In this document: positions 30,407 to 33,735 of the stretch, piece by piece | How positions within the stretch are numbered: the stretch's first letter is position 1 | Layout of the letters: the number at the start of each line of letters is the position of its first letter | Source of the DNA: a bacterium | Lineage (GTDB): Bacteria; Bacillota_I; Bacilli_A; Izemoplasmatales; UBA1188 | Length of the DNA: 64,000 nucleotides | NCBI GenBank assembly: GCA_017541975.1 | Contig: JAFXYB010000002.1 | Location: 335-64,334, forward strand | Direction of reading: 5' to 3' | Made by a program: the position numbers and the translations under genes | Notes under the pieces: generated by a model | Seen by the model: the letters and a program-made list of their open reading frames with translations, nothing else | Told to the model about the DNA's origin: nothing | Database searches by the model: none

Positions 30407-30419
30407 AAGCTACTTGTGT

Positions 30420-30529
30420 GATCATACAACTTCAATTTACCCGAAGTGTACAAAAACTATGATCGCAATACACACAAATAAATAACAAAAACAGAAATAA
30501 GACTCTGCATACAAGCAGAGCCTTTTTTT
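30420..30529 (+). repeat. Partial copy of the repeated intergenic module (Y part), including the rpsR terminator
   Basis: ATCATACAACTTC...TTTACCCGAAGTGTACAAAAA...AAGACTCTGCATACAAGCAGAGCC+T7. Parallels ATCATCACAACTTG...TTTACCAGAAAGATACAAAAT...AAGACTCTTCA in copy A and AAGACTCTGCAATTTGCAGAGT in copy B. Confidence 0.6.
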
Positions 30530-30530
30530 G

Positions 30531-30879
30531 CGCTTTAAGGCCTTGCGCTGAACTATTTATTGCTATTTATAGCAATGTCGGGCGTGGGGCATAGGCTTTA
30601 ATGGGCGTTGGGCAGAGCTTTGCTTTGCTTATAGGCGAGGCTAAATGGGGCTAGGCTGGGCGCGCTTTGCATGATCAAGATTATTGTATCTTTCAGGGAA
30701 AAGGTGGTTGTATCATCACAACTTGTTTAATCACAGCTTGAGTTTACCAGAAAGATACAAAATGTCTTTCCTGGCAGCTATGCTTAAATACTAATAACAA
30801 GTAAATAAAAGAAATAAAGACTCTTCAAGTTATGAAATGTACCCCAAATCCTGAATAACCAGGAGGAGGGGTATTTTTT
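30531..30879 (+). repeat. GC-rich intergenic element, copy A (candidate structured ncRNA or MITE-like repeat)
   Basis: Starts right after the rpsR terminator. Palindrome ATTGCTAT-TT-ATAGCAAT (30559-30576), a G-rich core at 30580-30670, a 23-nt exact match to copy B (30666-30688), a GTATCTTTC...GAAAGATAC hairpin, and its own terminator TACCCC..GGGGTA+T6 (30840-30879). Confidence 0.7.
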
Positions 30880-30944
30880 ATTACTTTTTGTTATTATTAT
30901 TTAATTGATGTAATATAATAATAAGTGATAGGAGGTGTTTTAAT

Positions 30945-31259
30945 ATGGGAAAAGAATTTAGAGAAAAATTAGAAAAAGTATTTGATGTTTTAGGCGAAAT
31001 TATCGCTTTTGTAGCTGCAGTAGTATGGGCATTAGTTATTATTAATCAAACTTGGTCATTCTTACCTGATATTGTTGTTTCAATCTTCAATATTGCAAAA
31101 GCTTGGTTATTATTAGTACTTGTTGGTGTAGTAGGTCTTGAAGCAACCATTAAGAGAAACTTCTTTATTCGTTTATTATTCTACATAATATTAGCTGTAC
31201 TAGTAATATTCCATTGTTTCCCTGCAACATACGAATACCTAATCGGTTTAGCAGGATAA
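30945..31259 (+). CDS. Small hypothetical membrane protein (104 aa, about 3 TM)
   Basis: SD TAGGAGGTG before the ATG. Three hydrophobic segments. No recognisable family. Confidence 0.65.
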   Translation: MGKEFREKLEKVFDVLGEIIAFVAAVVWALVIINQTWSFLPDIVVSIFNIAKAWLLLVLVGVVGLEATIKRNFFIRLLFYIILAVLVIFHCFPATYEYLIGLAG

Positions 31260-31279
31260 AAGCTAAAGCATATTATTAA

Positions 31280-31308
31280 GGTTCTGCAAGAAATGCAGGG
31301 CCTTTTTT
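31280..31308 (+). terminator. Intrinsic terminator after the small membrane protein gene
   Basis: GGTTCTGCA / TGCAGGGCC stem followed by TTTTTT. Confidence 0.75.
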
Positions 31309-31510
31309 CGTTTTAAGGCTACAGGCATGTATATTACTACTTATAGCAATGCTGGGCGTGTGGCATGTGCTTGGGCTGGTGGCGCTGGCAATATATGGCA
31401 AGGTGTAAAGCTTTTGCATGATCAAGATTATTGTACATTTGAGGTAAAATGTGTTTGTATTATCACAATAAAACATGCAAGAAAGACTCTGCAATTTGCA
31501 GAGTTTTTCT
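31309..31510 (+). repeat. GC-rich intergenic element, copy B
   Basis: Shares TTTAAGGC, TTATAGCAATG, GGGCGTG.GGCAT and the exact 23-mer TTTGCATGATCAAGATTATTGTA (31413-31435) with copy A. Ends in terminator ACTCTGC/GCAGAGT+T5 (31486-31510). Confidence 0.7.
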
Positions 31511-31535
31511 TTTGGTTTGTTATATAACGCAAATA

Positions 31536-31576
31536 TGTACAATTGTACTTGTTTATGTACATAAATAGTGTATAAT
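31536..31576 (+). promoter_or_regulatory. yefM-yoeB operator/promoter with TGTACA-core palindromes
   Basis: GTACAATTGTAC (31537-31548) and TTTATGTACATAAA (31552-31565) lie directly upstream of TATAAT (31571-31576). TGTACA cores are the known YefM-YoeB operator hexamer in E. coli. Confidence 0.65.
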
Positions 31577-31595
31577 ATAAGTGGGAGGAGAATTT

Positions 31596-31847
31596 ATGAC
31601 AGTTACTAATATTTCTGTTTTGAGAAGCAATCTATTTAGTTCTATTGATAATGTAATTGAGTACAACGATTCTATTACTGTTAGCACAAAAAAAGGAAAT
31701 GCGATTATTATTTCCGAAGATGAATACAACGCCATGTTAGAAACCATTTATTTAATTTCTCAGAAAGGTCTAGTTGAAAAGATTAAAGAAGGCGAAGAAG
31801 AAGATATTTCTATGATGCCAACTTATAATCCTAACGAAGAGTGGTAA
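31596..31847 (+). CDS. yefM: YefM/Phd family antitoxin
   Basis: ATG follows GGGAGGAG. ITVSTKKGNAIIISEDEYNAMLETIYL is the typical Phd/YefM core. Gene ends 2 nt before the toxin ATG. Confidence 0.88.
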   Translation: MTVTNISVLRSNLFSSIDNVIEYNDSITVSTKKGNAIIISEDEYNAMLETIYLISQKGLVEKIKEGEEEDISMMPTYNPNEEW

Positions 31848-31849
31848 TT

Positions 31850-32095
31850 ATGTGGATTATTAAATTCACTAAAAATGCAGAAAAAGATAAAAAGTTAATT
31901 AAAAGCACTGGATTAGAAGAAAAAGTAAAGAAACTATTAAATCTTATCGCTAAAAGTCCCTTTCAAAACCCGCCAAGTTATGAAAAGCTTGTTGGTGATT
32001 TACAAGGCTATTATTCTAGAAGAATTAATCTACAACATAGGCTTGTATACAAGGTTTATGAAGACATTAAAACGGTTGTTATTCATTCGATGTGA
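31850..32095 (+). CDS. yoeB: YoeB/Txe family toxin, truncated by TGA before the catalytic C-terminal His-Tyr
   Basis: YYSRRINLQHRLVYKV core of YoeB. The ORF stops at TGA 32093-32095 after ..VVIHSM. The same frame continues SHYEDN-TAA (to 32116), which restores the family C-terminal HY. Confidence 0.8.
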   Translation: MWIIKFTKNAEKDKKLIKSTGLEEKVKKLLNLIAKSPFQNPPSYEKLVGDLQGYYSRRINLQHRLVYKVYEDIKTVVIHSM

Positions 32096-32179
32096 TCACA
32101 CTATGAAGATAATTAAATATAATAAATTATAATGAATCTATTGAAACCGAAACAATAGATATTTAATAGGACAAAAAGT

Positions 32180-32677
32180 ATGAACAACTTCAAGATTATT
32201 AAATATAATGAACAATATTTTAATCAAACAGCTGAATTACTATCACTATTTCGTGATCAATTAAGAAAATTTAAAGATATTGATAGTAAACCAGACCTAG
32301 CATCAGCCAAAAGAGAATTGGATAGTTTCTCAAAGGATGAAAATTATCCAATCTATTTATGTTTAGAAAATGACGTCGTTATTGGATATATGATTTTAAA
32401 AATAGATGGCGTTATCTGGGTAGAGCAAATCTATGTTAAAGAATCACATAGAAGAAGGGGCGTGGCATCTCTTTTATACCAAGAAGCTGAAAGAAGATCC
32501 AATGAAATAGGTGAAGATACACTTTATAACTGTGTTCATCCAAACAACGAAGGCATCATAAGTTTTTTAAAATCTAGAGGTTATAATGTTTTAAATCTCA
32601 TTGAAATAAGAAAACCATATAAAGATGAGAAATCTAAAACAGTTATAAAGGTTGGAAACAATGATTTTGATTATTAA
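32180..32677 (+). CDS. GNAT family N-acetyltransferase
   Basis: HRRRGVASLLYQEAERR acetyl-CoA motif. 165 aa. Confidence 0.8.
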   Translation: MNNFKIIKYNEQYFNQTAELLSLFRDQLRKFKDIDSKPDLASAKRELDSFSKDENYPIYLCLENDVVIGYMILKIDGVIWVEQIYVKESHRRRGVASLLYQEAERRSNEIGEDTLYNCVHPNNEGIISFLKSRGYNVLNLIEIRKPYKDEKSKTVIKVGNNDFDY

Positions 32678-32682
32678 TAGTA

Positions 32683-32710
32683 AAAACAATCCGAGGAATC
32701 GGATTGTTTT
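32683..32710. terminator. Bidirectional terminator between convergent genes
   Basis: AAAACAATCCG / CGGATTGTTTT 11-bp stem flanked by A/T runs on both sides. Confidence 0.8.
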
Positions 32711-32727
32711 ATTATAAATCTACTTAA

Positions 32728-33735
32728 TTATTCAAAATTATAACGATAAATTCTTTCAGCTAGTTTAGGACTACAAAAATCAACAATAACCCAGCCGTTT
32801 AATTTCATATTTGAATCTAATAATTTCTTATTTAATGCGTTTGCATATTTATATGGATGTCCATATGTAATACTTCCATTTGTAGATAAGAAGCTCACCT
32901 TAACGTAATTATTTCCTTCAGGCATATAGTTAATAGAATTAACAAATGCGTCCCATTTTTCTTCGCTATTGTATTTATAACGATCTTGAACATATAGTGC
33001 GAAGTCTGGATTATAATTGTTTGATTCAATATGTTTGTTTAAATCATCGGTATTTTTTTGATCGTTCCAATCAAACATAATGCCAGGATTCTCAAGTTCG
33101 GCTTTATTAGAATATCTTCTAAGAAGTAGCATTTTTCCACGTAGTTCACCAACTTTAGGTAGTTTATCTGTCAGTAACCAGTATTTTTCATTTGTTTTGA
33201 TAAGATTATCTAATAATATTTGTAGTTTAGCAACATCGGTTTTACTGTTTTCAGATTTAACTGTGAATACAATACATTCAGTTGGGTTTTCATCTAAAAA
33301 CTCATAACAGTCCTTTAGAATTTTATCTAAATACAATAAACTTGATAGAGGGAAATTGTGCACTCTACAATGACACCAACCATGCATAAGCATAATTTGG
33401 TCATCTTCAGTTAAATCTAATCTAATGTCTAGATACCTAAACCCAGAATTGAGTTGTTCTTTCACACTTAATGATTGGCATTTAGTAAAATATGATAAAT
33501 CACTTTTTATTGCTGCAGTATCATGAGAACCAGGTAAAACAACTTCACTAATTAACGTTTCGTCATTCAAATCCTTCATCCAGTTGTTTGTTCCTTCAAC
33601 TTTCCCTCTTGGGCCATACTCAAAAAGAGGGAAAATATACATTAATGAAATAAACACAACAATAACGAGTAGTACTAGACTGCATAAAGCTGTTAATATC
33701 ACCTTGAGAGGTGAAACTCTTTTCTTTGTGCTCAT
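32728..33735 (-). CDS. Membrane-anchored PI-PLC X-domain (PLC-like phosphodiesterase) protein
   Basis: N-terminal TM anchor. VLPGSHDT and YLDIRL...MLMHG motifs correspond to the catalytic His regions of bacterial PI-PLC. Confidence 0.75.
   Translation of the reverse strand: MSTKKRVSPLKVILTALCSLVLLVIVVFISLMYIFPLFEYGPRGKVEGTNNWMKDLNDETLISEVVLPGSHDTAAIKSDLSYFTKCQSLSVKEQLNSGFRYLDIRLDLTEDDQIMLMHGWCHCRVHNFPLSSLLYLDKILKDCYEFLDENPTECIVFTVKSENSKTDVAKLQILLDNLIKTNEKYWLLTDKLPKVGELRGKMLLLRRYSNKAELENPGIMFDWNDQKNTDDLNKHIESNNYNPDFALYVQDRYKYNSEEKWDAFVNSINYMPEGNNYVKVSFLSTNGSITYGHPYKYANALNKKLLDSNMKLNGWVIVDFCSPKLAERIYRYNFE

Follow-up and report, generated by a model that had tools for sequence, protein, structure and literature searches.

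A yefM-yoeB operon of a rumen bacterium with a toxin probably disarmed at Trp82, a codon lost many times in parallel

The yoeB toxin gene described here carries a TGA stop in place of its Trp82 codon, and very probably it encodes a genuine, truncated and catalytically dead toxin, kept beside an intact antitoxin gene and an intact putative operator, in an instance of a disarmament that has recurred in parallel among related bacteria. The gene lies in a window of 64,000 nucleotides (assembly GCA_017541975.1, contig JAFXYB010000002.1) from an uncultured rumen bacterium, represented by a metagenome-assembled genome (MAG) of 1.18 Mb in 29 contigs that is 82.5% complete. The host genome is small (about 1.2–1.4 Mb), has a G+C content of 33% and uses TGA as its rarest stop. 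The proposed course of events is short: a single G>A transition turned the Trp82 TGG of yoeB into a TGA stop; with TGA read as a stop, the main product is a YoeB of 81 residues; YoeB(1–81), left without the general acid His84 and without Tyr85, would be disarmed. The N-terminal groove is untouched by this change, so that a YefM:YoeB(1–81) repressor complex would probably still form and antitoxin would still be supplied.

Operon architecture: By descent, the locus is a type II toxin-antitoxin operon on the chromosome, a yefM-yoeB pair that belongs to the Sa2 type of S. aureus (Table 1). Upstream of the antitoxin gene, the palindromes TGTACA (31536–31541), TGTACT (31544–31549) and TGTACA (31556–31561) have GTAC cores that start at 31537, 31545 and 31557, the last two spaced by 12 bp, and a TATAAT element (31571–31576) adjoins them. 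A block of this region, CAATTGTACTTG.TTA.GTACATA...TGTATAAT, is kept in L003, L004, L005 and L008; the putative operator/promoter at 31536–31576 escaped a consensus promoter scan. The antitoxin matches PF02604 over model positions 1–71 of 74 (E 3.3e-8), has an identical length across all related loci, and its gene differs from that of L003, a locus of the same species, by a single synonymous base. Spacing within the operon is tight, with the antitoxin TAA at 31845–31847 and the toxin ATG at 31850 in the same orientation. The toxin frame reads ...GTT GTT ATT CAT TCG ATG TGA TCA CAC TAT GAA GAT AAT TAA, with the TAA at 32114–32116; the sequence thus confirms the original prediction that the frame stops at TGA 32093–32095 and continues in phase to a TAA ending at 32116. 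Translated with TGA as Trp, the toxin frame gives ...VVIHSMWSHYEDN before the final stop.

Table 1. Features of the yefM-yoeB locus in the window, and alleles that carry a stop at the Trp codon
Feature	Position	Strand	Basis or carriers
Promoter/operator region	31536..31576	+	GTAC-core palindromes and TATAAT, read from sequence; operator role inferred from E. coli and S. aureus YefM-YoeB operators
yefM-type antitoxin, 83 aa, intact	31596..31847	+	Pfam PhdYeFM_antitox PF02604
Truncated yoeB ORF, 81 aa + TGA	31850..32095	+	TIGR02116, Pfam YoeB_toxin and PDB 7v5y matches
Premature TGA, from TGG (Trp82)	32093..32095	+	TGG in L003, L004, L005, L008
Orphaned in-frame tail S-H-Y-E-D-N-stop	32096..32116	+	Same as intact allele; encodes catalytic His84-Tyr85
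TGA alleles			Window, P0260 (7 contigs), L060, L068
TAG alleles			P0257 (13 contigs, >=8 samples), P0263, P0215 (12 contigs), P0163, P0194, L110, L111

Toxin product: Profile searches recognize the toxin in both its truncated and its read-through form. Against TIGR02116 (Txe/YoeB), the 81-residue form scores 78.7 bits and the read-through form 88.1 bits, with a cut-off of 51.8; against PF06769 (YoeB_toxin), the scores are 44.3 bits (81 residues, E 1.9e-11) versus 45.8 bits, with a cut-off of 27. The two forms differ in how much of each model they reach. The match of the 81-residue form covers positions 1–74 of 80 in TIGR02116 and ends at position 73 of 80 in PF06769, whereas the read-through form extends to 80/80 in both, and the C-terminal residues that the original prediction expected to be missing are indeed those that the shorter product lacks. 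Retained in the 81-residue product are E45, R57/R58 and R64, together with the N-terminal region for antitoxin binding; W82-S-H-Y-E-D-N is absent. The catalytic set is therefore incomplete in the table-11 product, as H84 and Y85 are encoded only 3' of the TGA. Judged by its sequence, the gene is a member of Txe/YoeB by descent whose predicted product falls short of the catalytic residues that the family calls for.

The consequences of the missing end can be read against the structures available for this family. As modelled by AF2 (mean pLDDT 75.5, pTM 0.62), the read-through form has strands at residues 3–6, 54–58, 63–70 and 75–84 and helices at residues 8–20 and 23–35, an order of elements compatible with the RelE/YoeB microbial-RNase fold of two N-terminal helices and an antiparallel sheet. 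In the 81-residue form, the final strand (75–84 in this model) loses its last three residues. In E. coli YoeB, Glu46 acts as general base and His83 as general acid, with Arg65 and Tyr84 as stabilisers of the transition state; on the ribosome, the C-terminal tail moves over onto the mRNA, and the Y84A change abolishes activity (PMC3814384). The E. coli residues Glu46, Arg65, His83 and Tyr84 correspond to E45, R64, H84 and Y85 of the window toxin. Because His84-Tyr85 is lost, the toxin would be disarmed, by analogy with E. coli YoeB: YoeB(1–81) should be unable to cleave ribosome-bound mRNA, and a loss of toxicity is expected to follow. This agrees with the first of the two explanations originally offered, a nonsense-inactivated toxin next to an intact antitoxin and operator, since the derived TGG>TGA change removes the His-Tyr pair required in E. 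coli (PMC3814384). Antitoxin binding is predicted to fare differently. In Sa2YoeB, the residues in contact with the antitoxin are Val6–Ser11, Leu16, Ile19 and Phe28–Lys36 (PMC8717551), and all positions matching these contacts are present in the 81-residue product, which can presumably still bind YefM.

Comparison with known systems: The closest solved relative is the Sa2YoeB-Sa2YefM complex of S. aureus (PDB 7v5y, 7v5z, 7v6w; E 7.9e-12, residues 3–86 aligned). Sa2YoeB shares with the window toxin the C-terminal S-x-W-S-H-Y and a Phd/YefM antitoxin encoded upstream, and Sa2YefM binds to an N-terminal groove of Sa2YoeB (PMC8717551). Unlike the window product, which stops at the residue aligned with Trp84 and before His-Tyr, Sa2YoeB is full length, with 88 residues. 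E. coli YefM-YoeB (PDB 2a6q; ribosome complex 4v8x) resembles the window locus in its TIGR02116/PF06769 membership, operon order and GTAC-core palindromes, but its toxin is intact, has an Arg two residues before the His (…CRYHY) and is of low identity to the window toxin (E 2.2e-6). Axe-Txe of Enterococcus faecium falls within the same Txe/YoeB equivalog family, and its toxin also ends in …H-Y; unlike the window module, it is plasmid-borne and its toxin is untruncated. Txe has Lys or Asp before the His-Tyr (…AKDHY). The original prediction had placed the TGA at a position normally held by Lys or Arg, which is right for E. coli YoeB and Txe but wrong for the window toxin's own subfamily, where Trp (TGG) occupies the site. 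A precedent for decay of this kind is the chromosomal ccdO157 module of E. coli, for which PMC7167474, citing Mine et al. 2009, describes an accumulation of toxin-inactivating mutations in natural isolates, nonsense mutations included, with the antitoxin retained; its decay is discussed there in terms of lost addiction or of a role in anti-addiction. Unlike YoeB, its toxin comes from another family, being the gyrase poison CcdB. To our knowledge, there is no report for ccdO157 of one codon hit repeatedly by both stop-creating transitions. Our literature search, within the literature that it covered, found no report of a truncated YoeB or of a repeatedly hit single codon.

Origin of the stop: Comparison with homologues indicates which state of codon 82 is ancestral. 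In the alignment with Sa2YoeB (7v5y), ...ILSAWSHYD stands opposite ...VIHSM[TGA]SHYE of the window. All of the nearest 20 homologues (83–98% identity) have W82 within the motif HSMWSHY, and W82 was found in 128 of 130 close homologues. The nearest allele, that of L003 from the same species, shows 5 differences in ~640 nt across the operon and reads ATG TGG TCA; the same column is TGG in the other three loci listed in Table 1, which settles in favour of a sense codon the comparison of related alleles that had been proposed. With TGG in the nearest allele and a Trp that is invariant in the subfamily, the TGA is a derived single G>A transition. A further allele of this gene comes from another MAG, GCA_016648615.1 (protein P0005), whose gene order is as in the window (cinA-rpsF-ssb-rpsR-104aa-yefM-yoeB-GNAT-PI-PLC...) and whose toxin is full length with H84R, at the catalytic His, and Y44C. 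What looks like a single species would thus hold intact (L003), nonsense (window) and catalytic missense (GCA_016648615.1) alleles.

Recurrence: A scan with one genome per species yielded 80 related loci, most of them in MAGs from rumen and gut that carry the label Bacilli or Erysipelotrichaceae. Two of these, L060 and L068, fall in a sister clade whose toxins are ~60% identical to that of the window and have ATG TGA at the same Trp codon; after the stop, their frame continues x-H-Y-D-K-V-K. At the protein level, 11 of the best 120 cluster representatives of the window clade (~9%) end in ...HSM and one more stops at the Tyr, while of the 119 close cluster representatives in the sister clade, 34 (~29%) end in ...VRM, two stop one codon later and one at the Tyr. 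These counts are of representatives at 90% identity, not of independent events or cells, and they are blind to early truncations, as the length and score filters hide products well below ~75 residues. The first two truncated relatives found had TGA; the next seven lineages had TAG in six cases and TGA in one. The tail beyond the stop is intact in every truncated allele examined, the truncated loci occupy different genomic contexts, and the antitoxin is intact wherever upstream DNA exists. With the Trp codon masked, 37 distinct yefM-yoeB sequences (532 columns) gave a maximum-likelihood tree that requires nine or more changes between Trp and stop, all on terminal branches, and that places several stop alleles beside TGG sisters at 97–100% support (window/L013 with L003, L137 with L022, and L098 with L059). 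On this tree, the same Trp codon has been turned into TGA or TAG at least nine independent times in related bacteria. A pattern scan of metagenomes added 20 loci only, several of which were chance matches outside YoeB genes. It had been held that the reading of the stop as a lesion would suffer if functional family members naturally ended at this position. The outcome is mixed: many alleles do end here, but as derived nonsense alleles with the His-Tyr codons still downstream.

Several accounts deny that the stop is real, or that it terminates translation. That it is an artefact, either a sequencing or assembly error or a mixed-population consensus in the MAG, is very improbable. The fragmented and incomplete source genome would allow for such an error, but the exact 81-residue protein occurs on 7 contigs of different lengths in a public collection (contigs that may share samples), the ENA contig L013, from another assembly with a different break point, shares 3295 nt with the window at 100% identity, the TGA among them, the window toxin carries a private A20T change besides the TGA, and analogous stops occur in many other samples. 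The 7 contigs and the identity of L013 make a one-off assembly error unlikely. A sense-codon TGA, read as Trp (Mycoplasma code 4) or as selenocysteine, would suit a small genome of low G+C content from a member of the Bacilli with TGA as its rarest stop, but it is hardly credible: TGA is a stop codon in this host, which uses the standard code. The prfB gene for RF2 is intact in the window genome (479 bits versus a cut-off of 370). Genome-wide, TGA ends 80 of 834 non-overlapping ORFs of at least 150 residues under table 11, which together cover 88% of the genome, and the window contains an ORF of 2153 residues free of TGA. Within the window, our recount over the 62 ORFs that reach 60 residues finds TGA at the end of 4, the toxin among them, in keeping with the earlier figure of about 4 of ~66 genes. 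The genomes of L060 and L068 also have an intact RF2, and the genes flanking these loci are open under table 11. The tRNA-Trp of six congeners has the anticodon CCA, not UCA; neither a tRNA-Sec nor a suppressor tRNA was found in the window genome assembly, and homologues have Trp rather than Cys or selenocysteine at the site. Genetic codes 4 and 25 and selenocysteine were rejected on RF2, the TGA-free giant ORFs, the genuine TGA ends, the tRNA-Trp(CCA) and the absent tRNA-Sec. There is more to be said for a leaky stop that serves as a dosage device, giving mostly inert YoeB(1–81) and a small useful dose of active toxin through tRNA-Trp(CCA), though on balance we consider it improbable. A single base separates TGA from TGG, and what near-cognate decoding of UGA inserts is Trp, the exact wild-type residue. 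Background read-through of UGA by the endogenous tRNA-Trp is visible in E. coli, and an unpaired 27:43 position in tRNA-Trp is linked to higher UGA read-through (PMC13092985). A change of this type, an A27.C43 mismatch that leaves a 4-bp anticodon stem, is present in the tRNA-Trp(CCA) of three of six congeners (L141, L142 and L144 (1498–1572, minus strand)), the pair being G.U in L139, L140 and L143, and the intact His-Tyr tail of every truncated allele also speaks for leakage. Against this, about half of the truncated alleles of independent origin have TAG, a codon not open to such reading by tRNA-Trp; RF2 is present, and the +4 position is a T, TGA-T being the commonest context at genuine TGA gene ends here (38 of 80 ORF ends). 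The window genome's own tRNA-Trp is missing from its assembly, and the syntenic place on C26 is without a tRNA. Same-frame ORF pairs split by TGA show no excess genome-wide (7 of 99), a poor test as adjacent genes dominate it. All stop alleles lie at tree tips, so that conservation of the tail needs no selection; as a sign of translation it was set aside, since a tail of 21 nt in alleles at the tips has no power. The undecayed tail fits young alleles, and continued translation would fit as well. Given the TAG alleles and the ordinary TGA-T context, UGA-specific read-through is unsupported, and the small active dose that had been proposed as the second explanation finds no backing in these alleles, in RF2, in the context of the stop or in the search for a suppressor tRNA. 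Selection for UGA in particular was dropped after the expectation of an all-TGA series failed in the later lineages (TAG six times versus TGA once). Programmed read-through or UGA recoding was likewise rejected, as most alleles have TGG and the rest TGA or TAG, no suppressor tRNA or tRNA-Sec was found, and RF2 is present. Basal near-cognate leakage at UGA may nonetheless restore the wild-type residue.

If the stop is real and is obeyed, it could be a product of mutation or of selection. Neutral decay at a mutational hot spot, in which the truncated genes are young pseudogenes heading for deletion and the toxin body is not under selection, is the stronger of the evolutionary alternatives, yet still unlikely. 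The Trp codon offers two G>A routes to a stop in AT-biased genomes, and TGA and TAG are about equally frequent, as two equivalent G>A transitions predict. The placement of all events on tips and the documented nonsense decay of chromosomal toxin-antitoxin modules (PMC7167474) are in line with such decay, as is L110 (3230–3500), where a TAG at the Trp codon is combined with decay further upstream. The distribution of lesions is harder to reconcile with it. Of the 51 one-step nonsense paths in the intact allele of the same species, W82 holds 2, an expected share of 4% at equal rates and of 16% with transitions weighted eight-fold, although equivalent transitions to a stop are available at W2 and at three CAA Gln codons. 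The concentration on the Trp codon rests mainly on a small position-unbiased set, the 80 species-level loci, in which four loci are disrupted: two have a stop at the Trp codon, and the others are L092 and L032. In L092 (3200–3240), unrelated sequence replaces the tail exactly from M81, at the Met-Trp junction; L032 (3001–3075; 91% identical) has an early frameshift and stops near the N-terminus. The nonsense events of this set and the window number three, all at the Trp codon, and no stops at W2 or at the CAA codons were found in the 80 loci. Missense changes cluster on the catalytic His and Tyr (Y85C in 11 cases, H84R in 5 and Y85N in the window clade; H>Y in 5 cases and Y>H in the sister clade) and arise through other types of mutation, A>G and C>T. 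Truncated alleles are also widespread over samples, P0257 on 13 contigs and P0215 on 12. Taken at face value, this pattern points to selection for, or strong tolerance of, catalytic loss with the protein body preserved; a local mutational hot spot at ATG-TGG-TCA may be the cause instead, and the data fit either. A stop selected as a 'safety catch' goes further and is correspondingly less probable, a rather doubtful proposition at present. Here, YoeB(1–81) would be kept to stabilise YefM and to co-repress, and the module would be re-armable, with a polymorphism of armed and disarmed alleles in rumen populations. If this were so, the module would act as an antitoxin reservoir or as an anti-addiction device against incoming elements that bear YoeB, and it could be re-armed by a one-step reversion to TGG, from TGA or TAG, or, in TGA alleles, by rare decoding by tRNA-Trp.

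The preferred reading, that of a dead toxin with a live antitoxin as one of many parallel cases, gives the locus a different weight alone and in company. Taken alone, the window shows ordinary toxin-antitoxin decay, with a toxin killed by a nonsense mutation and a surviving antitoxin. The many-fold parallel disarmament at one site across rumen Bacilli is the new part, and it is modestly interesting. Within one YoeB subfamily, between about a tenth and a third of the alleles found in nature would be disarmed, overwhelmingly by changes in the final few codons (Trp>stop, His>Arg/Tyr and Tyr>Cys) and in the microbiomes of many animals. Such a natural mutational scan would mark the C-terminal W-S-H-Y tail as the dispensable part, and it suggests that the remaining toxin body is worth keeping. 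These observations bear on the debate over the role of toxin-antitoxin modules in chromosomes, which may be selfish, regulatory or protective. They also expose a pitfall of annotation, in that products may be labelled as toxins despite ending before the catalytic His-Tyr. NCBI calls P0169 and P0238, truncated proteins of 83 and 77 residues, 'Txe/YoeB family addiction module toxin' and does not flag them as pseudogenes.

Genomic setting: The relatives used for comparison are other rumen Bacilli MAGs, outside the genus of the window. In a search of the same genus, the yoeB toxin was absent from all eight other species, and its absence from these congeners suggests that yefM-yoeB arrived horizontally. 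The part of the window at 30407–33735, downstream of rpsF-ssb-rpsR, is a variable islet that holds a 104-residue membrane protein, yefM-yoeB, a GNAT gene and a PI-PLC-like gene on the minus strand. In the relatives L004–L009 and L126–L138, yefM-yoeB also follows rpsR, accompanied instead by HipA, Fic, NUDIX/HTH, DNA-alkylation-repair or nucleotidyltransferase genes. In L094 (1068–1452), of the P0215 lineage, the truncated yefM-yoeB is directly followed by a second pair, a RelB/DinJ-type antitoxin and a YafQ-type toxin, an example of how toxin-antitoxin modules cluster in these small genomes.
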